In this document: piece after piece, positions 5,100 through 60,885 of the stretch | Position numbering within the stretch: the first letter of the stretch is position 1 | Layout of the letters: the number at the start of each line of letters is the position of its first letter | Source of the DNA: Phoronis australis | Taxonomy: Eukaryota; Animalia; Phoronida | DNA: 64,000 nt | Direction: 5' to 3' | Assembly (NCBI GenBank): GCA_002633005.1 | Contig: NMRA01000405.1 | Location: 208,702 to 272,701 of the forward strand | The notes under the pieces: model-generated | Told to the model about the DNA's origin: nothing | Seen by the model: only the letters and a program-made list of their open reading frames with translations | Database searches by the model: none | Made by a program: the position numbers and the translations under genes

Positions 5100-6740
5100 T
5101 CGTAAAATTTCAATTACGAACCAAAGGGGTATCAGGAAGTATTCCCATCATAAGTTATACAGTGTGCAAATTGTCGTCGAGGAGAAACTTACAACATAAG
5201 GTACTAATGCTAATAAAACAACGATGGATTTAAACCGGCTTCACATGTTTCGGCGTTTATTAAAACAACATCCTCAGAAGAAAAAAAAAACAGTGTCCAC
5301 CTTGCAAGACCCAACAACAAGTACTGATACACAGACACAGTCAGTTACTAGGGAGTAACAGTGGACTATACTAACAATGACAACCTGTGGTGTGCCAGTT
5401 GCCTATTGAGTCTGGGCTTGCACCAATTTATGTATAGACTGAACCTCACGAATTTTAGTCTCGTCTGCTGTTTCTGTTTGGTTTATTACAAAAAAGTCAT
5501 TGAAAGAGCATTGCTCGTAACAAACGACTGGAGCGCTGCAGATGAAAATCAATATGTGAACTTCAGTGAGAATTTAGATGTTCCCTGGTACAGGTTTTCA
5601 AGTGGCAAAGAGTTTCGCCTATATAACTGGAGCCTCGTCCAGCACAGAAATATGTGTACACTACCTTAGACTGTAGACCTGACTATAGGAAAGTTGTCCT
5701 TGGGATTAAATAAATTAGACAGTTTTAGAGACTTGAATGTTAATACAAATTTTAATTTAACACAGTAATAATTCACCAGTTTCTTGAGTTTTCGGTGAGC
5801 AATCTTGGCTTAACAACTAACATAGGGTATTTTGACAAACCTGTAGTTAGTTTTGACTACAGGACGAATATCACGAATATCACCAGCGTTACGTTGCAGT
5901 TTTGATATCTGCACCCTATTGACTTGTTTAAGGGGATAGCTATTCTTTTGCAAATTTGATGTAAGTTCTTTAACATCAGAATGAAATCTAGCCCGATTGT
6001 TGTGAATGCGATACACCCTGTCTATTAGAGTTTTACTGCGACCCGCCATATAAACAAAAGACGTCAAGCTATGAAAACAAGTGTAAAACCCTGCGAGGTA
6101 CCTTCACATTCAAATAACACGTCCAAAAATGGCAATTATGTTCTCAACCTCTATTTCCATACTGAATTTCAAGTAAGGATGCCTCGAGTTTAACTATACA
6201 ACAATTCCTGGGCTGCCTGCTGACTTTGAAATACAAAACGCAACGTCAACATATCGTCGATAGAAATAGACATGAGGACCAGCGTATGTCTCAATCCATG
6301 TTTTCTCATGGTGACCTAAACACATGCCGAGTAATATGGGAGCCAAAGGTGAACTCATTGCTATATATAAAATGGGATTTGCTGATGGCAAATAAATAGC
6401 TCCATCAATTCATATAATGTGATTTTTATACTAGGTCCGTTTATAATGATACAGCCAGTAGCCAAGATATACATTCGTCCATAGCCGGTAGATTAGTAAA
6501 CAAACTCGCATTATCACTAGAAGCCAAGAACCGATTAATGAGAACTTGACTTCAAACTTCAGGAACAAACGAGTATGTATCACCTGCTGTGTAATGTCCA
6601 TGTGTATGTGGTTTGAGTAGTACAAATGGACTTAGCAAGATTATAGTTGAACGTATTCACAGATGACCTGATAGATCTAAATGGAGGAAAAGGATCCTCT
6701 GTTACTCCCCTGTAACTGACTTATCTGTGTACTGTTGTTC
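5100..6740 (-). mobile_element. Decayed 5'-truncated Penelope-like retroelement (RT plus C-terminal GIY-YIG)
   Basis: Minus-strand remnants in PLE order: PFRSIRSSVNTFNYNLAK (~6630-6685), SLFTNLP, SSPLAPIL...YRRYVD (6194-6391 ORF), thumb LIDRVYRI...LQKNSYP (5810-6067), GIY-YIG YIGETLCHLKTCTREH (~5578-5624), then a hammerhead. A short inverted copy of 5314-5361 sits at 6698-6739. The left boundary is approximate. Confidence 0.85.
5239..5280 (-). ncRNA. Minimal type I hammerhead ribozyme motif (degenerate) in the PLE 3' pseudo-LTR
   Basis: The minus strand reads CTT-CTGAGGA-T-GTTGTTT-TAAT-AAACGCC-GAAA-CATG-TG-AAG: canonical core and a palindromic CATG helix III. The cleavage triplet is GTG rather than NUH, so it is probably inactive. 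Confidence 0.75.
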
Positions 6741-9700
6741 CTGGGTTTTCTTCAATTCTATTCTTTTTAGTCTGCGCGTGTAAGCGCAGAGTACTGTTGT
6801 TCCTGGGTTTTCTTCAATTTTATTCTTATTACTCTGCGCGTGTAAACGCAGAGTACTGTTGTTCCTGGGTTTTCTTCAATTTTATTCTTATGCTTATTCT
6901 TATTCTTATTACTCTGCGCGTGTAAGCGCAGAGTACTGTTGTTCCTGGGTTTTCTTCAATTTTATTCTTATTACTCTGCGCGTGTAAGCGCAGAGTACTG
7001 TTGTTCCTGAGTTTTCTTCAATTTTATTCTTATTCTTATTCTTATTCTTATTCTTATTCTTATTCTTCTTATTCTTCTTCCGACCAACTTTGAGGCTTAA
7101 TAACTCCAAATTGGGTGCAGGTACGGTCTTTAAATTCAGCATATGACTTTTGACAGTAAATAAATTTTGATTGGTTATTTAATAATATTCCATATTGTAC
7201 CGGAGGAGGGCGTTTGGTGCAAAGGTCATATGATTTTCAAAATGCTACTCCTCCCTCAGTTTTAAAGCGATCTTTTTCAAACTCGATGCACAGGTGTAAG
7301 TCAACATGACAATGTAAAAAATACTTTTCTAAGTAATCGGGTTATCCAATCAGGTGAAATAGGTCAAAGGTCATTAGGTGCAAACTAAAACTTTGAGCTA
7401 GACACTTCAAATTGACAGGTCTGATTGCCACAGGAAAATCAAATCGGAATCCAAAGTTTCAGTGCAAACATGGGGTCATTAGGTGCATTTTTCTTTTGAA
7501 AATTTGACTTTTTCAATCAGCAAGTATTCTGATGTGTCAACCATTAGACAATTGTGATTCTCAGCGTTAAACACATTTTCCATGGGCTTTGCAATAATTC
7601 TCCTAAAGATGCTTAAAAATCACCGGATCAGGCTAATTAGTGCAAAGGTCATGTAACGTTCAAAATATTATATCTCTTACGTTTTTCAAGGAATTCTTTT
7701 CAATTTCAGCACACTGGTGTAAGTCAACATGCCAATTGAATATCCTACCTTACTTCGCAATAGGCCTAACCAATCAGAAAAAATAGGTCAAAGGTCACTG
7801 AGTGCAAACTAAAATTTTGAGCTAGAGACTTCCGAATTACGTATCTGTTTACTAAGTGTGATTGAGTTTGAATTCTAAATTTTCAGGTCATTTGGTGCAC
7901 CCATGGGGTCATTAGGTGCATTTTCCTTCTGAAAGTTTGATCATTTCATTCATCTTGTATTCTGAAATGCTTAAAGTAAAACATCTGTGACTATTAGCAT
8001 TAACCACACTTTTTATCGAGTTAACAATTACATGTACACCCTCATCGGGGCTCATAATGCACCGGAAGAAGTCAATTAGTGGAAAGGTCATCAAAAAATT
8101 AATATGTAATTTCTCCGACAATTTTAAAGAACTCCTTTTCATATTGGTAAATGGGTTGCTGTCAGTAACTTCCCATAATAATTCCAGTAATACGCACGCG
8201 CAGAGTCTGTTATTGTCACGCCGTGACAATAATCATTCTAGTTCTTATTCTTCTTATTACTCTGCGCGTGAAAGCGCAGAGTGCTGTTGTTCCTGGGTTT
8301 TCTTCAATTTTATTCTTATTCTTCTTACTCTTCTTCCGACCAACTTTGACACTTAATAACTCCAAAATGGGTGCAGGTACGGTCTTTAAATTCATAATGC
8401 ACCGGAAGAGGTCAATTAGTGGAAAGGTCATCAAAAAATAAATATGTAATTTCTCCTACAATTTTAAAGAATTCCTTTTTCATATTGGTAAACGAGTTGC
8501 TGTCAGTAACTTCCCATAATAATTCCAGTAATACGCACGCGCAGGGTCGGTTATTGTCACGCCGTGACAATAGTCTTTCTTGTTACTCTGCGAGTGTAAG
8601 CGCAGAGTACTGTTGTTCCTGGGTTTTCTTCAATTTTATTCTTATTCTTCTTATTACTCTGCGCGTGTAAGCGCAGAGTACTGTTGTTCCTGGGTTTTCT
8701 TCAATTTTATTCTTATTCTTATTCTTCTTCTTATTCTTCTTCCGACCAACTTTGAGGTTTAATAACTCCAAATTGGGTGCAGGTACGGTCTTTAAATTCA
8801 GCATATGACTTTTGAGAGTACATAAATTTTGATTAGTTATATAATCATATTCCATACTGCACCGGAAGAGGTCGTTTGGTGCAAAGGTCACATAATTTTC
8901 AAAATGCTACTCCTCCTTCAGTTTTAAAGCTATCTTTTTCAAATTTGGTGCACAGGTATAAGTCAACATGAGAATTTAAAAAATTACTTTTCTAAGTAAT
9001 GTGGTCATCCAATCAGGTGAAATAGGTCAAAGGTCATTAGGTGCAAACTAAAATTTTGAGCTAGACACCTCAAATTTACAGGTCTAATTGCCAAAGCTAA
9101 GTCAAATCGGAATCCAAAGTTTCAAGTCATTTAGTGCAAACATGAGGTCATTAGGTGCATTTTTCTTCTGAAAATTTGACCTTTTCAATCAGCAAGTATT
9201 GTGATGTGTCAACCGTTAGACAACTGTGGTTCTCAGCGTTAAACACATTTTACATGGGCTTTGCACTAATTCTCCTAAAAATGCTTAAAATGCACCGGAT
9301 AAGGACAATTAGTGCAAAGGTCATGTAAAGTTCAAAATGTTATATCTCTTACGTTTTTCAAGGAATTCTTTTCAATTTCAGCACACTGGTGTAAGTCAAC
9401 ATGCCAAGTGAATACCCTACTTTACTTCGCAATAAGCCTAACCAATCAGAAAAATAGGTCAAAGGTCATTGAGTGCAAACTAAAATTTTGAGCTAGAGAC
9501 TTCAGCATTACGTATCTGTTTACTAAGTGCGATTGAGTTTGAATTCTAAATTTTCAGGTCATTTAGTGCACCCATGGGGTCATTAGGTGCATTTTTCTTG
9601 TGAAAATTTGACCACTTCATTCATCTTGTATTCTGAAGTGCTTAAAGTAAAACATCTGTGATTATTAGCATTAACCACACTTTTAATCGAGTTAACAATT

Positions 9701-11128
9701 ACTCCCTCATCGGTGCTCATAATGCACCGGAAGAGGTCAATTAGTGGAAAGGTCATCAAAAATTAAGATGTAATTTCTCCTACAATTTTAAAGAATTCCT
9801 TTTCATATTGGTAAACGGGTTGCTGTCAGTAAATTCCCATAATATTTCCAGTAATATGCACGCGCAGAGTCCGTTATTGTCACGCCGTGACAATAATCTT
9901 TCTAGTTCTTCTTCTTATTCTTCTTCCGACCAACTTTGAGACTTAATAACTCCAAATTGGCTGCAGGTACGACTTTAAATTCAGCATATGACTTTTGACA
10001 GTATATTAATTTTGATTGGTTATATAATCATATTTCATATTGCACCGGAAGAGGTCGTTTGATGCAAAGGTCAAATAATTTTCAAAATGCTACTCCCCCT
10101 TCAGTTTTAAAGCTATCTTTTTCAAATTCGGTGCACAGGTAAAGGTCAACATGACAATTTAAAAAATTACTTTTCTAAGTAATCGGGTCATCCAATCAGG
10201 TGAAATAGGTCAAAGGTTGTTAGGTGCAAACTAAAATTTTGAGCTAGACACTTCAAATTGACCTGTCTGATTGCCACAGGTAAATCAAATCGGAATCCAA
10301 AAGTTTCAGGTCATTTAGTGCAAACATGGGGTCATTAGGTGCATTTTCTTCTTAAAATTTGACCTTTTCAACCAGCAAGTATTCTGATGTGTCAACCGAT
10401 AGACAACTGTGATTCTCAGCGTTTAACACATTTTCCATGGGCTTTACAATAATTCTCCTAAAGATGCTTAAAATGCACCGGATGAGGTCGATTAGTGCAA
10501 AGGTCATGTAACGTTCAAAATGTTATATCTCTTAAGTTTTTCAAGGAATTCTTTTCAATTTCAGCACACTGGTGTAAGTCAACATGCCAATTGAATACCC
10601 TACTTACTTTGCAATAGGCGTAACCAATAAAAAATATGTCAAAGGTCATTGAGTGCAAACTAAAATTTTGAGCTAGAGACTTCAGTATTACGCATATGTT
10701 TACTAAGTGGGAGTGAGTTTGAATTCTAAATTTTCAGGTCATTTGGTGCACCCATCGGGTCATTAGGTGCATTTTTCTTCTGAAAGTTTGACCACTTCAT
10801 TCATTTTGTATTTTGAAGTGCTTAAAGTAAAACATCTGTGATTATTTGCATTAACCACACTTTTCATCGAGTTAACAATTTCTCCCTCATCGGGGCTCAT
10901 AATGCACCGGAAGAGGTCAATTAGTGGAAAGGTCATTAAAAAACTAATGTGTAATTTCTCCTACAATTTTAAAGAATTCCTTTTAATAATGGTAAACGGG
11001 TTGCTCTCAGTAACTTCCCATAATAATTCCAGTAATACGCACGCACAGAGTCCGTTATTCTTATTCTTCTTCTTCTTCCGACCAACTTTGAGGCTTAATA
11101 ACTCCAAATTGGGTGCATGCTACGGTCT
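6730..11128 (+). repeat. Tandem array of Helentron-associated (HINE/DINE-like) non-autonomous elements, about 4.5 copies
   Basis: The consensus unit has a 5' subTIR ttattactctgcgcgtg plus short IR gcgcagagta, a (TTATTC)n microsatellite, a core, and a 3' subTIR cacgcgcagagt, palindrome tattgtcacgccgtgacaata and CTAG-TT end. Copies lie at about 6730-8243, 8255-8582 (internally deleted), 8583-9907, 9908-11058 (no 5' subTIR, 3' end truncated) and a stub at 11059-11128. Confidence 0.8.
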
Positions 11129-11132
11129 TTAA

Positions 11133-12034
11133 AGACCCTACATAACGGCCAAATGACTTTTGAACATGTTAAATACATGTATATGTATCAGTGATCGACA
11201 CAAACATATCATCCCTCCGTTTACTCCTGGCATTAGCTAATTACGCCAATTACTATCGTACGACCCCATCATGAACCCCATTTAGCGCCGAAAAAAAACT
11301 TTAGGTGGCGCTCGTTCTAATCGACGCAAATGACGTCATCGTTGGTACCCAAGACGTATCGAACAGTCCGTTGCCACAGAAAGCTTACCTTACGGTGTCT
11401 GGTGCATATTTCACAGATTTTCAAAATTACAACTGTTAGAGACAACCAAGCTCAAATACTATGCGACACTTATCTCGACACTTCTACGTGCATGTAATAT
11501 CCTAAAACTCACTGTCCCTTGATCAGTAGTTTAGCGTCACCGCAGACAGTAGCGCGTTCTCGGTGGGGACCACTTACTCACTCTAACATCAAATGCTTAT
11601 TCACAAAGACGTCGGGNAGTGTTCAGTTCAATTCTGTTCGTTTCACTGCGTAGTTCATGGAGTGTCTACTTTATTTGACAAAGTAAGATACACGGAGATG
11701 TTTCATGGCCTCATATTTGCTATTAACAGCGTACCTTTCATTCTTCACTACCGCGAGCCACTTCCTAAGCATTTCGGTCTTTCGAGGAAGTCGATAAAAT
11801 GATATACCCGCTTTCTTCGCAGCTTCATAGTTCGGACAAGCGGGAACGATGCACTGCAATATAGCGGCATTCACTCTGCAGACGAACCACTTACGTCTCT
11901 GCGTCGTTTCTCACCTTCCTCACAGGTTAACGCGACACCTCTTGGCAAGGTGAGGTCGACCGCAAAAGAGGCGAAATAGATATAGACCGATTAAGACGGT
12001 AAAAAAGACTAATTAAATCGGGTGGCATTCTCCT
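11133..12034 (-). mobile_element. Kolobok-type non-autonomous element with THAP remnant
   Basis: TTAA lies at both ends (11129-11132, 12035-12038). The right end gtggcattctcct is shared with the elements ending at 32331 and starting at 58076. ORF 11671-11874 (CIVPACPN...ISFYRLPRKTEMLRKWLAVVK) is THAP-like. The left terminus does not match the right, so this may be a chimera. Confidence 0.65.
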
Positions 12035-32689: not shown

Positions 32690-33300
32690 CAATAGAACGC
32701 CCTATCTCTTTCCCTCTCCTTACCCCCCCCCNCCCATCTCCCGCCTCTCTCTTTCTGACCATAAATAACTTTCAAAATTTAAATGAAGAAATTTTTATTT
32801 TTCTAAACATTAGTGTGGCTTCAGAAAATTTCACTATAGAAAATTTGCTTCACTTGAGCTTTTATGTCACACTTGTGTCCATCTTGATAGCGATAAAAAT
32901 CCCCTGGTCATATTTCTCCTTCTATCAAAAGCTATCGACACAACACACCACCAAATACTCTCACAGGAGATGATTCACTACGGTATATTTAGAGGTGAAA
33001 ATAAAATTTTTAATAGTTATCTCTCAAACCGGACCCATTTTATTCCACTGAAGGACACCACTTCCATTAGCTTACCGATATCCACCGGAGTCCCCAAGGC
33101 TCACCACTTTTCTTCTTTAGATCAATGATCTCCCAGATTCGTCTCCCATGTACTCACTACTCTATGCCAACGAAACTTGTCTTGTCACGCCTTAACCTCT
33201 CGCTGAATCATCTCAACACAGTTATCAACAACCATCTACCATTAAGAACAACCTTGAATCTCTTGCAGCCTGTTTTTCCCTAAACAAACCTTAAATAATC
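32690..33300 (+). mobile_element. Decayed CR1/L2-type LINE reverse transcriptase fragment
   Basis: Remnants IFLLLSKAIDTTHHQIL, YGI.RG...SYLSNRT, GVPQGS, INDLP and LYANET match FLDLSKAFD / GVPQGS / YADD. The left boundary is approximate. Confidence 0.75.
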
Positions 33301-33308
33301 ACACACAC

Positions 33309-33873
33309 AATACGTACCGAGAGTGGCGTAGATGAAGAAATATACCACGAGACATTATTCCGCATACCGACCGAGACCGAGGTACGTTTTGTATTTATCC
33401 CATGCGCTTCGAATTCCTAAGTTTCTTTCATTTTTCGGCAGATTTTTAAAAATACTTCACCCACACTGTTCACGTGGCGGATCACATCCAAAATGTATAT
33501 ACTTGCGCGATAGGTTACAAGTTTTCTCTAGTAAAAGAAACAGTCTTAAATGTAACGATTCCTTCCTGGAAACGAGATAACAAAGATGAAAACAAAGGTA
33601 GTCGTGCATTGAACTTATATTTGACATTGTAGTTACCGAGGTTGGGACCTAACTGCATGTCGAGTGATATTTATACTGATGCAGTTGTATTACTATAAAC
33701 TATATTCGGAAAATTTGATGATCGAACCGGCTAACGACGTCGAGTAGAAATTGACCTACTTTTTGAACTTTCCATGTCAGAGGGAACTGTTGAAGTAGTG
33801 CAGGAGGTGAATACGGAAAACAATATCACATGGCCGTATCGCATTCGACTGATTCAACGGGTATGGGATAAAT
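33309..33873 (-). mobile_element. Crypton-like non-autonomous element (uninterrupted copy)
   Basis: Homologous to 2030-2230 (inverted) and to 57540-58071 plus 63706-63886. Subterminal IR ttatcccatgcg / gtatgggataa. Confidence 0.6.
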
Positions 33874-33981
33874 CAAGAAGTAAATTAATAATCTTCCACT
33901 ACACCCAAAAGAAAGCTGACAAATGTATTATTCTCACCATTTATAAATGTGTAATTCTTACACCGGCGTGGAAATGTACAT

Positions 33982-34147
33982 CGCAAACATTTTTAGTCTA
34001 GTCAGCACGCCACCTGGCCACATCACGTGACCTAATATACGGTTAGCAGAAAGTCCCGGCTGGGGCAGAACTCTTTCCAGACTTATATTCATTAGGTCAC
34101 CTGATATGGCCACAGGTGGCGTGCTGATCAGACTTAAAATGTTTGCG
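33982..34147. repeat. Short foldback (MITE-like hairpin)
   Basis: cgcaaacatttttagtctagtcagcacgccacctggccacatcacgtgacctaat pairs with attaggtcacctgatatggccacaggtggcgtgctgatcagacttaaaatgtttgcg. Confidence 0.7.
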
Positions 34148-34259
34148 TTCTCACCATTTATAGTAATTGCAAAACAATCAGTCCTTTCCTTGGTATTACC
34201 GTTAACGAAAACTTTCAGGGTGCCCCACATTTACCTCATTTCAAACAAACTTAACTCGG

Positions 34260-36119
34260 TGGACTCATATATAAATTGAAATCCTATCTTCTCCTCTAAG
34301 CTCTCAAGTTCACATTTGAACTATGACATCACAACGTGTGGTTTGGGGAACACAAAGAAACTGTAAACAGCTCAGAAGAGAATCGTTCCTAATTTCAGTT
34401 TTAGTGCTCACACTCTACCCATATGGAAGAAACCCCACCTCTCTTCATTTCAAGGCATCTTTAAAATCTCAACTGCAAAATTTCACTATAAACTTCAAAA
34501 TAATGAGCTACCAAAGTATGTTTGCACTAACAACTTCTTTATTGAATATTTAAACCAACCAGACACATTAAAACTCCTACGTACTTGAATCAATATTCGA
34601 TCGCTATTCGAACAATACAACCCAAAATTTTAATCCTCCATCCAATAAATTGCCATCAAGAGCATATGTCGGATTTGCAATATCTCGTCTTCTTAACCAC
34701 AAGTAATCTCGGCTCCAAATAGAATAAAATAACAATCTCTGCAAGCATTCTTCAGGTATTTAATCATATTGACGCTACATTCAAACGGCCTGACATCACA
34801 ATATTCTAAGAGAAGACAAAGACTATCATCATAATTGAATTGACAGTGCCACCAGAAGAAAATCTGTCCAACGCATATGTAGGTTTGGTCACACATTGCA
34901 TAAATCATGGTTGGGAAACCCACTTCTTTCCTGTCTAAGTCAGCAGTGGCTTCTACAATGACTCAGCCAGATTACGCCTTATGGCTCTTGGCCTCTCTAA
35001 GGACCTGAGAAAGTCAACCCAAGAGATCTGCAGTAAAGTGGCCCTCCCCGCAAGCTATCACATGTGGATCAACAGGTCGAGTAATTCATTTCACAGAGAG
35101 CAGCTGGCAGAAGAACGAGAAGATGCGAGGGAAGAGGTATGGCTGAGTTCTCGCAAAACTGGTTTAACCCACCGATGTCAGGCCCATAGTCCAGAGACCT
35201 CGCAACTTCCCATCCCTTCGGATGTCAACGTAGAATCAACTGTTTCACCGACTATGTTGATACTCCACAACCCTGGCAACTTGTACTATGGCAACTCAGT
35301 GTTGCATGTTCTAAGACATGTACCAGGCTTCAAAGATACCATTCGTGAAATAAAGACAACGCCAACACAGAAAGATTTTTCGAGTGCAAGTACAGAACTT
35401 CTAGATCGAAGAAGAGCCCACAAAAGCTGATTTGGTCCATTCATGACTATTTTCCACACTACGGCAATGAAAGACAAGAGGACTGTCATGAATTCCGGAG
35501 TGCCATACTGAACAGTATGAAAATGGAAATGAAAGTCTCCACCATCACTGACCAATGAAAGGACTTTTTCTAACAGAGGTGTCTCAGTTGTGGCAACTCT
35601 CGGTACATTGAAGAGCCTTTCCTCATCACAATTCCCTAATCAACTACATCTTGCTACTGGGCCACGTCAACTACTCAACATCTCTGAAATGATGAATGAG
35701 TTCGCCAGAAGTAAAGGATTGGCTGACAACACCCCTTCATGTCAACTGAAGCAGTTCAACAGCCACATGTATTTCAGACATCGTCACCTACATATGTCTT
35801 CATCGTCCATTTGCAAACTATGAAGCGCATTGAAAAGATACAGGCGTATGTAGATTTTGATAAGAAGATGAATTTTCAACCGCAGTGTCGCACTTCCAAC
35901 TCCACAAGCTCTGACGGGTCCTACTTCCTTGTGGCAGTGATTGCCAACCACGGTGAATCCTTAGATTCTGGCCATTTATCCAAAAATGGCTCCGACAGAA
36001 TCTTTAATTGCTTCTTTGAGGAGGTACAGAAAAGTTAAGTAAACTACGTCCTAGTAAACCTCTACAACGGCTCATCTACACTTACACCGAAGCCTGAGAA
36101 GATCCTATACAGGCAAGAA

Positions 36120-36121
<2 letters not shown>
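34260..36121 (+). pseudogene. Decayed RLE-type (Hero/R2-group-like) non-LTR retrotransposon 3' part fused to a USP (peptidase C19) domain
   Basis: Frame 1 reads RPDITIF*EKTKTIIIIELTVPPEEN...GWETHFFPV*VSSGF...ALPASYHMWINR and continues to LHNPGNLYYGNSVLHVLRHVPGF (Cys box). Frame 3 reads QEDCHEF (from ~35475) and YFLVAVIANHGESLDSGH (His box, ~35920-35975). A degraded zinc-knuckle-like region lies at about 34320-34460. Confidence 0.75.
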
Positions 36122-36181
<60 letters not shown>

Positions 36182-36404: not shown

Positions 36405-36959
36405 AAATAAATTTTAGAATCATAACCGCTATCGTGTAAGATACATGAAACAAGAACAATGACATTAAACACGAATATAAGGATGCATATATAAGAGCGC
36501 AATTACAGAAGGAATTGTCATGGAAACTAATGTACTATGAAACGTTGTAAAATTTAATAAAATACATAGGTGATACAACTTATGGACAGTATCTTGGGAA
36601 TTTATGTCAGGAGTTTCAGTTTTTATTATTAAAGCTTCGAGTATTTTCAAACGAAAGGAGTCACGTTTGAAATACCTGACGATGGTATTGTCAACAATAT
36701 CTGAACGAGAAATTTTCTATTTGTGGAGTTGGAAGTGATCTTTAATTTATCCATTCTGCAAATGCATAGATAACCGGCGAGATAAAGTGCAAGTTGTATA
36801 ACCAACATACCAATCAGTGTTTGAACGAATGCATTCGTTGTGGGCACAACTGAACTGATAAATCAAGTCATTTTTGACTAACACTCGGACAGACTTTGAG
36901 CAAATATTGTTTTTAACAACAAGATCTTTAGTTTTATGGTTTTGGTAATATATAATTAA

Positions 36960-38749: not shown

Positions 38750-40300
38750 TTAACTTAAAGCTGTCTTCTGGCTTAACGGTCTTAACATTATTATGGATGA
38801 TCCGTTTTAAAACTCGTTCATCTTCAATAAAACGTGAATGAAATTGGTTGCGGTAGAATAGTTTCTTGGTACAATCACTTGCTTGTTTTTAACACATAGG
38901 CTTCTGCAACCGGCTTATCAAAAGCTTCATATTCTCATCAACAAACTTATTGCTGTAACCGTTATTTATCATAATTTGCTTAATGCGATTACACTCAGTG
39001 TTGAAGGTTTTCCAGTCTGAGCAAACGGAATATGCTCTTTTCAAAAAGCTTGTCAAAACAGAGAGTTTATATCTCAGAAGACATTGGCTAGTTTCATGTA
39101 AACAAACCCCATCATATGTAGGTTTCCTGCATACTGAGGTTTTAATGCCAGAATCATCATAATCAATTAGTACATCTAAGAACGGTAGCTTGTTGTTAAC
39201 TGGTAATTCATGCGTGAATTTTAATGCAGAATTTTGCTCTAAAGAGAGTTTGATCTCCATCAGCTTATCATGGATGACAATCATAAAGATATTATCAGCA
39301 TACCTGCAGTACATGTTCGGCTTTTCCTGAAGACCATCAATAACTTTAGCTTCAATGTTGCACATGTAAAAATCAGCAAAAGTTGGTCCGAGAGGTGATC
39401 CCATGGATACACCATTGGTTTGTAAATACAGTTTGCCATCGATGTTCCTAAAAGGTACTTTTGTAGTGCAAAGTAACAACAAATCTCGAATTACCTCTTT
39501 AGGAATACTGGGAGGAGCCATTGATACATGGTTGTACATAGAAGATATTATATATTTCTACAGTTTCAACAACAGGGACGTTAGTAAATAAACTTTCAAC
39601 GTCAAGAGATACAGGATAGGAATTTGGTGTTGCGTCAATAGATCTTAATAAATCTAAAAATTCATCACGAGATTTCACATTGTACTTATAGGGTAAGGAT
39701 TGTGTAATAAGTTTATCTAATGTTTTAGCAATTTCATAGGTAGGGGTTAACACTTGAGAAATGATGGGTCGTAGTGGGTACCCTTGCTTGTGTGTTTTAG
39801 GGTTACCGTACAAGTATCCTTCTGAAAAATCACCTTCAACAATTTTGAAATACCGTTTATGAACATTAGCTAGTTTAATTAAACGGTTTAACTCTTTCTT
39901 AAGATTATTTATGGGGTTACGATTTATACTCTCAAACTTTGACTTGTCAGCGATAATGTTATTCAACTTCTCTTTGTACTCGTTGTTATTCATTATGACA
40001 TACGCAGTTGTCTTATCGGACTTCCTAATAACAATGTCATCATTGTCCCTCAGTTGCTTGGCGGCAATACGAAGTTCTTTTGTTAATATTCTTGTGGAAT
40101 TTCTTGAATTGGATATGTTCTTTGTTCCTTCTGCCTTGAGCTGGTCTTTAATATTTGTATTAACATTGACAAAGGCATTTCTCTCAAGGTTTTCAACACG
40201 TTTTTTGACAAAAAATTATTTTCATCTTCTGTAAGTTGATGATCAGACAAATCCATGTATGTTTTCCGCTCTTGCGGTGTAACTATAGCACCTTTATATA

Positions 40301-44669: not shown

Positions 44670-45307
44670 TTAAAGAAAATACCAGCAGGGTGTCACATCC
44701 GTTGTGAAGATGATAACTGTACCGAGGAGTATATCGGGGAAACTCAACAACCGTGAATTGTGAATTAAACAATGGCAACTGAATGAGCTTTATCAAAACC
44801 GTCCATTTGTTATGTTTTGGAACAATTTCCCTTATCATAGAACAAAAAATGGACCTTTCTGCTAAAAAAATTCCCAATCCCACAACAACGCTCGATGCTG
44901 CCTAGCTTGCAGGGTTGCTAGATGTACATAGATGTCACTCGTGGGCCGTGCAGTGGCTAATGTATCGTCGCTCTGAGTGAGTCTTGCACGAGCCGGCTCA
45001 CCAACATCTACAAAACAACATCTCGGGAAGCAGAATAAGTTATGAAAAGCACATATGGTCGCTTGGCATTGCATTTGATGCCAGGTATTACAAGAAAATG
45101 TAAAGCTTTTTTCGTCTCAAAATACCGTATCTGGTAACATGTGGAGATAATCTGTGGTCGGATCTAATGCGCAGGTGTTGGCGTACGGCTAAATAACCCG
45201 AGGGCGTCAAAGACGAGTGAAACGAAACCTATTGTCAACAGTGAGTGTGTAATAGCTGCTCACGTCTTACCCGCCAATACAACATCTGGGTCTTGACGTC
45301 GGATTTC

Positions 45308-46744
45308 ATGATGTGCATTCAAAGTTTATGCTCCCTGTGTTTTTGGATATTTGCCGTTTACTGTCGTTGCATCAACGGGCAGAAGCAAGACATAAGGAAC
45401 TTGTCCAGGGATAAAAGTGATTTTTGGAAACTGAACAACAATCCAGAACAAATACATCTGGCTTTGGGAAATGAAGTATCGGAGATGATCGTTGTTTGGG
45501 CTAGTCCCGATCCGCTTCAGGAGGGAGATGTTCCCTCGGTTATCTATGGAGTGGATTCCTGGAAACTAGACAACAGGAGGAATGGGACGAGTCTCGACTT
45601 TGAAGTACCGGCACAATTTTTCAGTGGAAAATGGGTCCACGCTAACGTGCATAGTGCACATGGATATCACAGAGTGGTACTAACAGCCTTGATGCCTAAT
45701 ACACGGTACTGGTATAAAGTAATATCTGGCAATGAAGAGAGTAATCTGTATTCGTTTAAGACATTAAAAGAAGGACACACCTGGCCAGCTAGATTTATAG
45801 TGTATGGCGACATGGGACGAAAGGCGGGCGCAATCAGTTTGGGTCGATTACGTGCAGAAGCTCAAAGAAGAGATAAGGCAGTCGACGCTTTTATTCACGT
45901 TGGCGACTTTGCGTATAATTTTCAAGATAGTCAAGGAAAGGTGGGTGATTCATTCATGAAAAGAATTGAGAGCATTGCAAGTCATGTACCCTACATGACT
46001 TGCCCTGGAAATCATGAAATTTTTGGCGATTTTGCTCACTATCGCTATCGATTTTCCATGCCATCATCTGATTGGCCAATTCCTTTGAATAAAATGTGGT
46101 ACAGCTTTAATGTCGGTCTTGCTCATTTTATCAGTTATTCCACCGAAGTTTATTTCACACATAAAGGAGCTTACATAAGCGACCAATTGAAATGGCTAGA
46201 AGAAGATTTAAAGTATGCTAACGTGCCAACTAATCGGACTGCACAGCCATGGATTATTGCTTTTGGTCACCGCCCCATGTACTGTTCAAATGCTGACCGT
46301 GACGACTGCACAAAGAAACTCTCAAAAGTTCGAGCTGGACTTGAAACTCTCATGTACAAGTATGGAGTGGACGTCTTAATACAAGGTCATGAACATTCGT
46401 ATGAGAGACTGTACCCTGTGTACAATGAAACTGTCACGAATTGTGACTATGTGAACCCCAAGGCACCAGTTCATCTCATCAGCGGTGCGGCTGGTTGCAA
46501 TGAGAAAGGTGGTCTTTGTTTCGACGTCATGTTACATGCAGCCAGACCTTGGTCGGCCTTCCGGTCATGGCTACCTGGTCTTAATGGCTATGGTCGACTG
46601 ACGGTTCACAACTCAACACACCTGTACTGGGAGCAGGTGATTGCATACACCGGCCAGGTGATGGACAGCTTGTGGTTAGTCCAAGAAAATCATGCGCCAT
46701 TTAGCACTCCATTTGTAGCTGATCAAAGCAAGTGCAGTGTATAA
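45308..46744 (+). CDS. ACP7: Purple acid phosphatase, ACP7/PAPL-like, single coding exon (478 aa)
   Basis: Signal-peptide-like N-terminus after the ATG at 45308, PAP N-domain PEQIHLA, and all five metal-ligand motifs: GDMG, GDFAY, GNHE, GHRPMY, GHEHSYER. The ORF is uninterrupted. The symbol denotes family similarity, not proven orthology. Confidence 0.93.
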   Translation: MMCIQSLCSLCFWIFAVYCRCINGQKQDIRNLSRDKSDFWKLNNNPEQIHLALGNEVSEMIVVWASPDPLQEGDVPSVIYGVDSWKLDNRRNGTSLDFEVPAQFFSGKWVHANVHSAHGYHRVVLTALMPNTRYWYKVISGNEESNLYSFKTLKEGHTWPARFIVYGDMGRKAGAISLGRLRAEAQRRDKAVDAFIHVGDFAYNFQDSQGKVGDSFMKRIESIASHVPYMTCPGNHEIFGDFAHYRYRFSMPSSDWPIPLNKMWYSFNVGLAHFISYSTEVYFTHKGAYISDQLKWLEEDLKYANVPTNRTAQPWIIAFGHRPMYCSNADRDDCTKKLSKVRAGLETLMYKYGVDVLIQGHEHSYERLYPVYNETVTNCDYVNPKAPVHLISGAAGCNEKGGLCFDVMLHAARPWSAFRSWLPGLNGYGRLTVHNSTHLYWEQVIAYTGQVMDSLWLVQENHAPFSTPFVADQSKCSV

Positions 46745-55021: not shown

Positions 55022-55615
55022 CTAGTAAAAACAATCGTAAATTAAGTATACTTGGAGGACACGAACAGAAACGAAGTGCAACTTTAAATGTGTGACACTG
55101 TGCCAGAAGCAGTCCTCGCTCCAAAACCTTAGCTTGAATTGCAATGATGAGAACAAAGCTAAGCGCAGGATATAAATGCAGTGTCCAACTAGGGGACAAT
55201 ATATACAGGCTTCCAAGTTCTGAACGTTATAGAACGCACGAGGCGATACATGTGGATAATATATCGAGATTCCAGAAATGCAGACCAATTTAAGAAGGCA
55301 ATTGCGTACCTAACGGTGCTCCCCTCCCCTAAGTTACCACCGATGTCGTACCGCCCCCCCCCCACTGGTCCTCAACAATTTTCGTGCCGCGTCTCCCTTA
55401 TCAAGCACAATTCTTAACGAATCTAATTTTTTATGAGGGCGTCCGATCCACTATGGAAAAGAATCAGTTAAAGGACATTTCATCCAGAGACGATTTTTTG
55501 TAAGAAATTTTGAAATAATTAAGTAAAAAATTCAATGAGATCGATCAGCACAGGGACGCAAGTCTATAAATAATTTGTTTTGTATTGAGCCATGAGCTAT
55601 AGGGAGTTCTCTAAC

Positions 55616-56829
55616 CTGGTGTGCCAGGACAGTTGAAGGACTGTCTGCTTGGAGCTCCTCTTCTGGGATAAATTCATAGAACTGTTTAGTGGGACACAAC
55701 ATGAATCTTGCGTCTGGTTCCTCGGGCCAAATATTTATACCGAAAATCCCCTCCGTGGCAGCGTGCATATTGGTGTATACAAGGACCCCATCCAGGTAAT
55801 GAGATAACGGCTCACGGTAGTTACTGAAGCTCCCCGTCAAGACACACACAACCATCCTCATGTCGGGCCACACACGACGGACAATGCCAAACATCCCCTT
55901 GGAAAACTCCACCCGAAGAAATTCTGCCCTTTCCGGATTCGGTTGTAAATGCAGTTCTAGTTTGCTTCTCAAATCAAGGGGAATATCAAGGTCTCTTTTT
56001 AGGGCACCCATCTCTATATCCGTGCAAATGTCTGACCATTCTGCTTCAAGTTGGCGATAAAATGACAGGGTGGACGGAGCCAAACTATGCGATATGAACG
56101 ACAAGTCGTATTGCAACGAAAAAACACAGGCGATGTAGTAAAACTCGCGTTCTGTGTGGATATCGTACAAAACTTTGGGAAACGATAATAGACAGGGCTG
56201 TAACGATGGAATGCTCTTGGCACCCAGACTTCCGCAATCTATCCCGGTTTTAGTTTTGGAAAGTTTTGGAGCTACGGCCAATAAACCAAGCGGTCGAACC
56301 GTGAAAGACGGTTGATTGGTTTTAGCTATCATCTTGTTGCCTGCCAACGTCACAAGTATCGCGTGGACTTTCAGTAACTGGTTAAATAAGCCCCAGTTGT
56401 ATGGATAAACTTTATTCTTGCCCGAAGTGCCAGAAGTAAAAACGACGAAGTCGACAGGAAATTTTGATTCGTTCAACTGCACGTTGGTTTCCCCGTCGAT
56501 ACGTCGGTCTACGTAGGGTCTGTAATGGTCGTATGTCGTCAGTGGGTGGTTAAGTCTGAACTCGGAGACAGACTTAATCTGGGCTAAATGAAAATCTTCA
56601 GCGTACTTCGTGCAGCCATTTGTCTCCAAACACCACATCAACATTTTCTCTTGTTCTTTGATAAAATTCGAGGTGAACTTCTCAAGTGACATAAGCTTTA
56701 TCAAAACTCCCGGAACATAAACTCTCCAAAGCGAAAACAGGCGCCACGCTGTGCAGTGGTTACACGGCTTTCTTCTTGATATGTCTAAACAAATCAGCGA
56801 AGTTACCATAAGCACAAGACTCGTAGCCA
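55616..56829 (-). CDS. GHDC: GH3 domain-containing protein (GHDC-like acyl-amido synthetase fold), large exon
   Basis: PLTTYDHYRPYV, P-loop TSGTSGKNK, PNPERA, HAATEG and FYEFIP, ending at the donor CAG|gttaga (55616). The 5' edge is either the acceptor gtttcag at 56830 with an unidentified upstream exon, or the ATG at 56809. Confidence 0.92.
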
Positions 56830-57539
56830 CTGAAACCAAACAAAAATATTCATGTTTTTTATTTTATTGACAAGAACAAATTCACGCGTTACGCTTCCAG
56901 AGCCTGATATATAGGCCTAGTTACATTTTAGAAGCTACCTGGACTTTTTGATATGACAATTTGTTGGTGTCTAAGGAAATAAATGTGCACCGGAGGTCAG
57001 AAAAACATGCAACCTCAAACAATCGTGTCTGGGCGTAGGCCGGCCCATGCAGCTTCATTTGAAGCAGCACCTCAAACCGGGATCAGGGGCATGCGACTAA
57101 CACAAACTACTTGAGCAAAAACCAACTAGGAGGAAGTGAGTAAAATTTAACTTTTCATGGTATCAAAACATTGTGCATGCGCCTGTATGAGAAACACTTG
57201 AGTAAATTAAAAAATCGCCCATTACATCGAATGGAGGCTTGTAAGACTCTGACATGCACGCAAATACGGTAAGACAAAACAAGTCTATGTACTCCAACGT
57301 TACTAGGCAACAGATGTAGAGAACTAAAGGTATTAAACTCGTCTTACTTAAGACCTTGAATTACTTCAGGTCGGAGACAAGTGCAGAAGGCAGTGGGAAA
57401 TTACACAAATTTCCCCTTGAGATAATGTAATGTTTATTAAGTTAATGTACAGAGAAGCCTGACGAATGCGGTACGCAGTCCGAGAGGGGGTGGGTACTCA
57501 GGTAAAAGACGATCGGGGATCAGAAATGCAGAGGGGTGA

Positions 57540-58071: not shown

Positions 58072-59954
58072 TTAAAGGAGAATGCCACACGATTTAATTA
58101 TTTTTTTTACCGTCTTAATCGGTCTATATCCACATCGCCTCGCATACGGTCGACCTCACCGTGCCGAGATGTGTCACGTTAACCTGTGAGGAAGGTGAGA
58201 AACGACGCAGCGACGTCAGTGGTTCATTTGCAAAGTGAATGCCGTCATGTTGTGGTGCATCGTTCCCGCTTGTCCAAAGTAGGCAGCTGCGAGGAAACTG
58301 GGTATATCGTTTGTTTCGACTTCCTCGAGAGTTCTAAATGCTTAGGAAGTGGCTCGCGATAGTGAAGAATGAAAAGTACGCAGTTAATATTAAGTATGAG
58401 ACCGAGATACATCTCCGCTGGTGTCTGTGGCCGGCAGTCGTCGACAGTGAGTCTGACGAATGCCGGCTTACCAAAGAACTATCCATACTTCCCGTTGTGC
58501 ATGTTCACGGCGCCTCTCTAGTATTTCTCGATCACTGTATTTCTGTTTGAACTGATAGCCTGTGAAACTTAACGGTCCACCTTCGAAATCTTCGTCGGAT
58601 GAGTTCTCGCCAGAAGTCGGGATTGCCAGTTGCCCTGTTTACGTTTATTTTTCTACGTTCTGTTTCAAAATTAATTATTCACACCCTAACCAACGCTTAT
58701 ATAAACTGAAACAAAGCCTGTGTCATTAGATGCAATTTGTAATGCCTTTGGAGTATTCGTGAGTGCAAATGTTTTGAGAAGCCAGCAGTAAATAAACCAC
58801 TGCGTTACCGACTTCAGATGCAATGAAGGTAATTGACCGGGCATCGAGGCCGTGTGAGCGCATACTAATTCAGTGTTTGCTGACAGAAAGTTGTTGGGAA
58901 AGAATAACTCGATTTTACATGCTATGGTCACATGTTAGGGTAATCATTATTTAGATATACATATACATTATTCACATCATTGCTACTGTACAACTTTTGC
59001 CCTGAAGGTTCTGTAAAAGGACAAGTTGACTGACTTCGGGGCCCCCGACAAGTAATAGACAGGCAGCCCAGAGCACTTAGCATAGATGAACGAGGTACCA
59101 ACATCTGACCACGGGAGCATTTAAAGTCCACCTCAGTATGTACAGAAATGGACGTCTGCCGTTGTCTGCACTCTGGGTGTGACCCCTGGGGGCCTTACAA
59201 AGAGTCCAAAAAATGAGCTGGCACATACATTCGAGGTACCACACGAAACCAGGCGTGCGTTCAGTAGACGCTAGGACCTACGGTAGGACTTAGCTAAAAC
59301 CTAGTCAAAGTCACATGTTCTCATTTAAAATGCACGGCATTATCTCACGTAATCTCGCGAAGTCTTGATTTTTAGCGAGGTCCTAGCGTTACTGACCGGG
59401 AGGCAGGCAATGCTGCAGCGAGACCTCTTGTTACCAAAACACGTCGTTGTTTATACCGGTATTTTTATTTAAATAGCATTGGGACTCCACTTCGTGGCTG
59501 CGCACCAAATTATGGGTGATCTGTATTTTATCACGGAAGACATTATGTCGGCCATCGACAAACGACTCCGCGAAACTACTTGAAAACATTGCAAACACTA
59601 TACACTACACTGAATTTCTACATCATGTAAAGATTTCTTCAAAAACTTACCACTAGGCGAGTTAACTGCCTTACATCTTGACACCCGTCTGCTTTTCGCT
59701 TATAGTGATCATGAGAGTAAACACAGGCTTTAGTGAACGAAAGTTTTCTATAATTTGTTTTTGTTTCCTGCAGTCCCGCTTTTTGCAGTTAACTTATTAA
59801 ATACACCACTTTTGTCACCAATTTAGAATATGTGTACTTCGATTTCCGTGGTGCAATTTTTAACATCTTGTTGTCCAGTTGTTTGGATTTCCCACCCGAG
59901 TACTTGAACAAGCAAGGTAAAGCTGCATGGACAATTGTAGCTCCATTTTTAAAG

Positions 59955-60885
59955 GTCCTTTCTGGGTTTCTGGCCGACTATTTTCAGAGTAAAATTTGTC
60001 TTTCACGGGTCATTGGGTGTTCAGTGCAGCACGATTGTTGGTTTTAAAACAGTTTAAGCTGATACCTTGAAAATCTGACTGTCTCAAAAATGGCATACCG
60101 TGGTTGAGATTTTTGAGGGTTTCTGCCAGGCACAATCCAGAGTGTATTTTGTCTGCCGGTCATAGGGCATTTAATGACCTGTGACATGTATTGAATCTCA
60201 TGTAATTGCTTTTGTGGTACCTCGAATGTATGTGCTAACTCATTTTTATGGGGTCTTTTTTGGTTTCTGCTGGACCCATTCCAGAGTGCAATTTGTCTGT
60301 CATGGGTCATTCAATGTTCAGTGTGGTGTTATTGTTCGTTTTAAATCAGTTTTGACCGCTACCTCGAAAATCTAGTCTAGATAAAAATTTTGATGGCATA
60401 CCGTGGTTAAGATTTTTGGGGGTTTCTGCCGAGCACAATCCAGAGTGTATTTTGTCTGTCATAGGGCTTTTAGTGATCTGTGACATGTATTGAACCATAT
60501 GGAATTGGTTTTGTGTGGTACCTCGAATGTATGTGCTAGCTCATTTTGGGGGGTCCTTTTCTGGTTTTTGCCGGACCCATTCCAGAGTGCAGTTTGTCTG
60601 TCATGGGTCATTTGGTGTTCAGTGCGGTACTATTGTTCGTTTAAAATCTGTTTTGGCCGGTACCTCGAAAATCTAATCTAGCTCAAATTTTTGATGGCAT
60701 ACCACGGTTGAGATTTTTGGGGGTTTCTGCCGGGCACAACCCAGAGTGTATTTCGTCTGCCTTTGTCATAGGGGTTTTAGTGATCTGTGACATGTATTGA
60801 ACCATATGGAATTGGTTTTGTGTGGTACCTCGAATGTATGTGCTAGCTCATTTTGGGGGTCCTTTTTTGGTTTCTGCCGGACCCA
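59955..60885. repeat. ~303-bp tandem repeat (about 3 units) with an inverted partial unit at 59200-59250
   Basis: atggcatacc(g/a)(t/c)ggtt(g/a)agattttt recurs at about 60090, 60393 and 60694. gtggtacctcgaatgtatgtgcta recurs three times and is inverted at about 59215-59240. Confidence 0.85.

Follow-up and report, generated by a model that had tools for sequence, protein, structure and literature searches.

One may ask if the ubiquitin-specific protease (USP) sequence that lies downstream of a restriction-like endonuclease (RLE) in the genome of Phoronis australis is a part of a retrotransposon, and what a deubiquitinase (DUB) would do in such an element. The question is raised by a 64,000-nt stretch of contig NMRA01000405.1 (hereafter the window), in which the initial annotation inferred a fossil of a retrotransposon lineage with its own deubiquitinase. 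RLE-type non-LTR elements, from which today's RNA-only gene-insertion tools derive, are taken to stop at the endonuclease, and in the excerpts of the papers considered here RLE was described as the C-terminal domain of R2, R4, HERO and CRE as well as NeSL (PMC4640811; PMC13708176). The role of ubiquitin and SUMO proteases on transposons is a long-open question.

The Element Copy in the Window

The element copy is 5′-truncated and occupies positions 34765–36122 of the forward strand (~1.36 kb). It was first drawn from 34260; the start has to be moved to about 34750–34765, since 16 relatives align from 34750–34786 onward only and the contig depth breaks at 34716. In run X1 the depth is 22–47 over 34716–36122 (contigs identical to the window having a depth of 3–11 there), 180–715 over 34113–34715 and >400 beyond 36122, which is a rise of more than 10-fold. 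The interval 34260–34740, covered 4–30 times as deeply as the element, is part of another repeat and lies outside the element. The RT of the 16 relatives found no match anywhere upstream within the window; the truncation reaches into the endonuclease region, and both RT and zinc knuckle are gone from this copy.

The RLE with its post-RLE helix spans 34765–35079 (forward strand), with R-P-D at 34786–34794 and E at 34837, and is 41–51% identical to relatives P0003–P0005 (E 1e-27 to 1e-31). In frame 1 the motifs follow in the order RPDI..IIIIELTVPPEEN..GW..FPV*V..G..ASYHMWINR, interrupted by two TAA stops (34807 and 34936); a 7-codon in-frame deletion covers the conserved Lys motif and one further codon is deleted. 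A Pfam search with the frame-1 RLE read-through gave no match. A profile built from the relatives scores 89.2 bits on the window RLE; on 600 codon-shuffled frames the RLE and USP profiles reach maxima of 3.7 and 5.1 bits. An in-frame linker follows at 35080–35262 (forward strand, frame 1), which measures ~61 aa and not ~65 aa as previously estimated. Re-reading agrees that frame 1 continues from the RLE through ASYHMWINR to the USP Cys box with only two stops and no frameshift.

The Cys box and the next helix are found in frame 1 at 35263–35403 (forward strand), where LHNPGNLYYGNS starts at 35263 and the catalytic Cys position (35284) reads Tyr, as had been noticed before. The QQD box, first CxxC and His box occupy frame 3 of the same strand at 35404–35975, broken by stops and frameshifts: QEDCHEF at 35475, CLSC at 35580 and YFLVAVIANHGESLDSGH at 35922–35975. 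The order of these boxes was thus given correctly by the initial annotation, to which it must be added that frame 3 holds 7 stops ahead of the His box; a weak frame-1 match near 35680–35745 suggests two more frameshifts. The Pfam UCH profile (PF00443), proposed as a check, matches the frame-3 read-through well above its cut-off (E 1.2e-11; 45.2 bits against 23.9), while the Cys box alone reaches E 0.021 and USP profiles from relatives give 23.2 and 12.1 bits on the window. Among solved structures the best match of the window USP is USP46/USP12 (E 5e-4), and with 22 bits it is weakly closer to the USP of P0009 than to other USPs. The decayed end of USP and element extends over 35976–36122 (forward strand), in which the third catalytic residue has no confident placement. 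The 3′ boundary is marked by repeat composition and the rise in depth: the copy ends at (TA)n, the start of a (TA)16.5(TG)13.5 microsatellite at 36123–36181 (forward strand). The 3′ flanks of 15 USP loci vary among themselves. The copy is dead, because of its stops, the loss of seven codons around the RLE Lys, Tyr in place of the catalytic Cys and the seven more stops in frame 3.

The RLE-USP Junction in Other Copies and in Intact Relatives

One alternative is a chance juxtaposition, in which a processed USP pseudogene was inserted independently beside an RLE fragment, and the full context is indeed readable for the window copy alone. Besides the identical contig, 8 (run X3) and 9 (run X2) contigs less than 90% alike aligned on 35040–35480 in P. 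australis; at least five of the other contigs, at 80–87% identity, cover the RLE-USP junction region, with 0–1 gap letters in the linker of four records, and one of them bridges the junction from the post-RLE helix to beyond the Cys box (35061 to 35334), its sole gap being 3′ of the Cys position. Thus the check for other genomic copies found the junction shared. RNA reads over the junction numbered 12 and 8, every one less than 95% alike. Differences of the other copies from the window were viewed in 40 of 116 rows, outside of which lies the Cys codon (35285); some other copies in this organism may share the Tyr. Since other copies cover the junction and intact ORFs with RT, zinc knuckle, RLE and USP exist, the junction in the window is no chance neighbourhood; as the same order recurs in proteins and loci that are independent and number in the dozens, the probability left to a chance juxtaposition is close to nil.

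The intact ORFs were sought with phmmer against 1.84 billion representatives, which gave 419 matches at E up to 0.001, and by an RLE-pattern scan of metagenome contigs, in which 191 loci were confirmed and 80 kept. UCH was above the cut-off in 28 of 58 RLE matches scanned, picked above all for their long tails or their length out of the 150 matches listed of the 419, and a USP lay downstream of the RLE in 18 of the 80 loci; both counts are biased upward, since the queries contained USP parts and the matches favour open ORFs. Eleven distinct ORFs (P0097, P0129, P0147, L029, P0166, P0162, P0165, P0181, P0185, P0220 and P0222) carry RVT_1 and UCH both above the Pfam cut-off, and zf-RVT in the relatives is mostly below it, yet at E under 0.05. 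Among the RLE-USP proteins is a RefSeq model from Hydractinia symbiolongicarpus (XP_057297663.1). In the Atlas, the RLE-USP part falls to a 72-member UCH cluster (0.94), with Cnidaria the commonest among the 6 members that have a phylum, and the whole protein to RVT_1 clusters only (under 0.9). Among viral contigs 31 pattern matches included no relative, and Peptidase_C48 (Ulp1) had no match in any full-length relative scanned. In L029, L047 and L059 the stop of the USP is followed by a conserved 3′UTR motif, CGAAA..CTGAYGA, therefore the USP lies inside the element. The distance from the end of the RLE profile to the USP has a median of 44 aa (range 26–301).

Catalytic residues were counted in 44 USP rows dereplicated at 90%, only covered positions being scored: Cys is present in 43/43, His in 32/32, Asp in 32/32 and the QQD Asp in 41/41 rows, and the RLE D, E, K and Y together with four Zn-binding Cys are invariant in 21/21 relatives. 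Among L010, L011, L013 and L018, at 60–68% identity, the USP dN is 0.21–0.28 with dS of 2.7 or saturated; in young near-identical pairs the USP dN/dS is 0.34 and 0.55, compared with 0.35 and 0.28 for the RLE of the same pairs. The modelled USP of L010 (pLDDT 88.9; TM 0.84 to USP36, USP2 and USP46; E 4e-26) is predicted to be a complete minimal USP with the fingers-palm-thumb fold. An architecture of RT-CCHC-RLE-USP in one ORF with intact catalytic residues, which was postulated from the fossil, is therefore found in many independent elements, and the view of the locus as a remnant of a DUB-bearing retrotransposon lineage is upheld: the architecture recurs, and the searches run that could have spoken against this view did not. 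The sequences searched included no member of the sub-lineage to which the window copy belongs that has an intact USP. The DUB is dispensable, since many relatives lack one (25 of the 80 loci have a closed ORF with at least 700 nt beyond it).

As to their origin, element USPs are bare domains of ~290 aa with 20–25% identity to any solved USP, and their scores against USP2, 8, 36, 46 and 12 lie within 12 bits of each other; on these comparisons they appear to have no clear cellular parent family. P0186 (1065 aa), a protein with a PIF1 helicase and a C-terminal USP, is the top non-RLE match of the element USP profile; it would be Helitron-like.

Two Unrelated Folds in One Slot

The RLE-linker of the window, used as a query, retrieved three long proteins, two of them being P0003 and P0004, in which RT, knuckle and RLE are followed by a JAB/MPN domain; L005, assembled as a circularly permuted unit, is a third such element. 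The JAMM domain of ~175 aa follows the same linker as the USP does in the window, matches human AMSH at E 5.9e-58 with about 55% identity (counted on the alignment), and its zinc site, E..HxH-x7-S-x2-D, is present in P0003 and L005, while P0004 ends ahead of the site. P0003 also matches R2 protein structures (E 2e-27). The nearest full-length relatives of the window carry an AMSH-type JAMM, whose fold is unrelated to USP. P0003 has, ahead of the JAMM (residues 1060–1210), three additional repeats of the conserved linker peptide's 3′ half.

In a 35-row tree, taken from the rows of a 200-row tree and with a window row that fills 42% of the columns, the window groups with the three JAMM elements and five apparently DUB-less rows (support 99/94; the DUB-less label is unsure for protein-only rows), and P0009, which has an intact USP, comes next outward (97/96). 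A separate clade with support of 100, made up of 15 USP rows together with one truncated row, is seen in an RT tree of 36 rows. The RT active-site motif is FMDD in this large USP clade and YADD in the window's JAMM relatives; the window's element clade is, as our best guess from its motifs, presumably HERO. The trees thus show two deep RLE branches with USP, one of which also has JAMM, and elements that lack a DUB occur in each of the two.

This distribution bears on another alternative, according to which the USP of the window's family is a 3′-transduced passenger or an already inactive domain, distinct from the USP that is functional in the larger clade. It would agree with the rejection of USP-bearing RLEs as a single clade in the 35-row tree (p-AU 5.6e-44), with the Cys codon of the other copies lying beyond the differences viewed, and with the basal position of the window USP in the USP tree, where its placement has no resolution; that tree is open at the base, has long branches and was built without USP2/8/12/36-type sequences. 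The linker, as described below, also runs across what appears to be an old 3′ end. However, a strong match to a cellular USP would be expected of a passenger acquired recently from the host, and the best match to a solved structure given above is not of that kind; the USP is in frame and copies at 80–87% identity retain the junction, and on the window's RLE branch both P0009 and P0122 have intact USPs. We regard a passenger or inactive USP as improbable.

How could the slot have arisen? A 75-nt segment of the linker (35127–35201, forward strand) is conserved at the DNA level with the JAMM element L005 (81% nt identity by blastn). Third codon positions agree between the two in 22/25 codons of this segment, which was itself selected by blastn, compared with 40/107 in the RLE and at most 14/25 in any 25-codon window wholly upstream. 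Read in another frame, the segment of L005 gives EGRATVERS, and EG(R/K)GTVERS is the C-terminal end of both P0006 and P0224, two relatives that lack a DUB. The fold of the 75-nt piece is not significant (z −0.46 and −1.22). The DNA-level conservation and the shared peptide suggest that the segment may combine an ancestral C-terminus with a 3′ cis element. The DUB coding sequence would then have been gained at the 3′ end of the element, and in the window lineage the ORF would have shifted frame, reading through the old stop and the 3′ cis element into the DUB. One DUB may later have been swapped for the other, or each captured separately; since USP and JAMM members share the frame, one read-through followed by a swap would be the likelier course. 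The order may also be the reverse, the DUB having been lost by frameshift in the DUB-less sisters.

What the DUB May Act On

In intact relatives a single protein carries RT, zinc knuckle, RLE, linker and DUB, the last of which is, as judged from its residues and low dN/dS, conserved, predicted active and tethered to the RT-endonuclease. The tethered DUB would remove ubiquitin from the element's own RNP, which could hence escape host disposal; that the intact relatives of the decayed 3′ end in the window act in this way we put at about an even chance. Since the slot is occupied by either of two unrelated folds, it would be the removal of ubiquitin itself that was selected. AMSH enzymes are K63-specific, so the AMSH-type domain predicts K63 chains as a target; the substrate shared by both folds would then include non-proteasomal K63 chains, and simple proteasomal rescue would not be the whole story. 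The K63 routes that may be proposed are autophagy, granule clearance or ribosome quality control.

Alternatively, the DUB may act at the insertion site, where, after the nick, it would free histones, PCNA or repair factors from the ubiquitin that damage induces and so steer repair to a completed insertion. The DUB immediately follows the endonuclease in the fusion, joined by a linker that varies, and K63 chains are also a DNA-damage signal on chromatin, both of which are in favour of such a role. A repair role was moreover proposed for OTU and Ulp1 on Ginger transposases, which lack an RNP stage, by Bao et al. (PMC2836005, in the part considered here). Against it, none of the chromatin DUBs stands out as the cellular family nearest to the element USPs. 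By analogy, we would prefer the RNP as a substrate, at roughly even probability, over chromatin, which we consider rather unlikely.

It may also be considered that the polyprotein of the element is processed by its own protease, as happens with some retroelement proteases. A site of the type [LRKI]xGG is found in 0/43 RLE-USP linkers and a JAMM with AMSH-type residues occupies the same slot, which makes self-processing very improbable.

Returning to RNP protection, a broader reading would see in the C-terminal DUB slot of a widespread animal RLE group a virus-like counter-defence against ubiquitin-dependent RNP restriction, the slot having come about here by read-through of the old 3′ end; we advance it tentatively, at somewhat less than even probability. 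The contents that it assigns to the slot, i.e., an ancient element-specific USP in two or more RT lineages and a captured K63-type AMSH in a third, are put forward with the same reserve. A slot filled by either of two unrelated DUB folds, with DUB-less sisters alongside, constitutes a natural experiment on the role of ubiquitin and SUMO proteases in transposons, and intact ORFs of 1300–2000 aa exist that are fit for a retrotransposition assay.

Relation to Known Systems

The relatives are like other RLE-type elements in having a single ORF with RT, a CCHC knuckle and a PD..E.K endonuclease; those elements, in the excerpts cited at the outset, end at the RLE, whereas here a 290-aa USP or a 175-aa JAMM follows. 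Accessory proteases of other families were named by the initial annotation for non-LTR elements (Ulp1, Josephin, OTU), in agreement with the portions of the literature considered (PMC4640811; PMC13405545). NeSL and Utopia-1_TSP have an N-terminal Ulp1-like protease (PMC4640811), and are thus also RLE elements with an accessory protease for ubiquitin-like proteins that is found in some relatives and missing in others, but theirs is an N-terminal SUMO-type C48 Ulp1, and here it is a C-terminal C19 USP or a metallo-JAMM. Dualen/RandI with Josephin, and one ORF2p with OTU, likewise have a DUB fused to a non-LTR RT protein, N-terminally and with other DUB families in other clades (PMC13405545, in its excerpt). 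Further parallels are Ginger1 transposases with C-terminal OTU or Ulp1, and a Trichomonas (T. vaginalis) transposase with Peptidase C19 (PMC2836005, in part): they share C-terminal, mutually exclusive DUB modules on a mobility enzyme and a C19 precedent on a transposase, but are DNA transposons without RT, RLE or JAMM. With cellular USP2, USP8, USP36 and USP46, and with AMSH (STAMBP), the element DUBs have the fold and catalytic residues in common; element USPs differ from the cellular ones in being bare domains with no single parent family.

The RLE+USP architecture was not known as described to the initial annotation, and no report of RLE-USP or RLE-JAMM came up in the literature search, in the portions of the sources it returned; the excerpts of PMC10318531, PMC9004415 and PMC5718144 make no mention of the fusion, and a catalogue entry in Repbase or Dfam is possible. 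Within those sources, transposons with ubiquitin proteases are already known, but a C-terminal USP or JAMM on RLE elements, exchanged among close relatives, did not come up.

Other Motifs and Neighbouring Sequence

The motif CGAAA-N10-32-CTGAYGA occurs in the 3′UTRs of 25 of the 80 loci (L012, L014, L017, L021, L057, L061 and others), with 28 sense and 1 antisense matches, mostly 50–300 nt beyond the stop of the RLE in elements that lack a DUB. We take it to represent hammerhead core elements in type II order; Rfam, run on five loci, gave 0 matches at E up to 1. Contigs L005, L033 and L059 have terminal overlaps of 108–127 nt, which suggests head-to-tail arrays or tandem-repeat targets, and the unit of L005 has about 300–380 nt between ORFs.

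Upstream of the element, positions 33000–34740 of the window (forward strand) presumably hold a decayed LINE, probably of the L2/CR1 type by its motifs and interrupted by high-copy repeats; this interval had no match in Pfam or PDB. Downstream, a CTGACGA-stem-GAAC sequence at 36652–36710, inside a high-depth repeat, resembles what we take to be the layout of a Penelope-type hammerhead, and a broken reverse transcriptase at 38892–40215 (reverse strand; RVT_1 E 7.6e-5) is, from its motifs, presumably Penelope-like. A 499-codon stop-free frame at 45245–46741 (forward strand) encodes a purple acid phosphatase, apparently intronless, and a 443-codon frame at 55535–56863 (reverse strand) a GH3-family domain. 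Complex arrays with units of ~430 nt and ~300 nt lie at 6700–11140 and 59944–60885.
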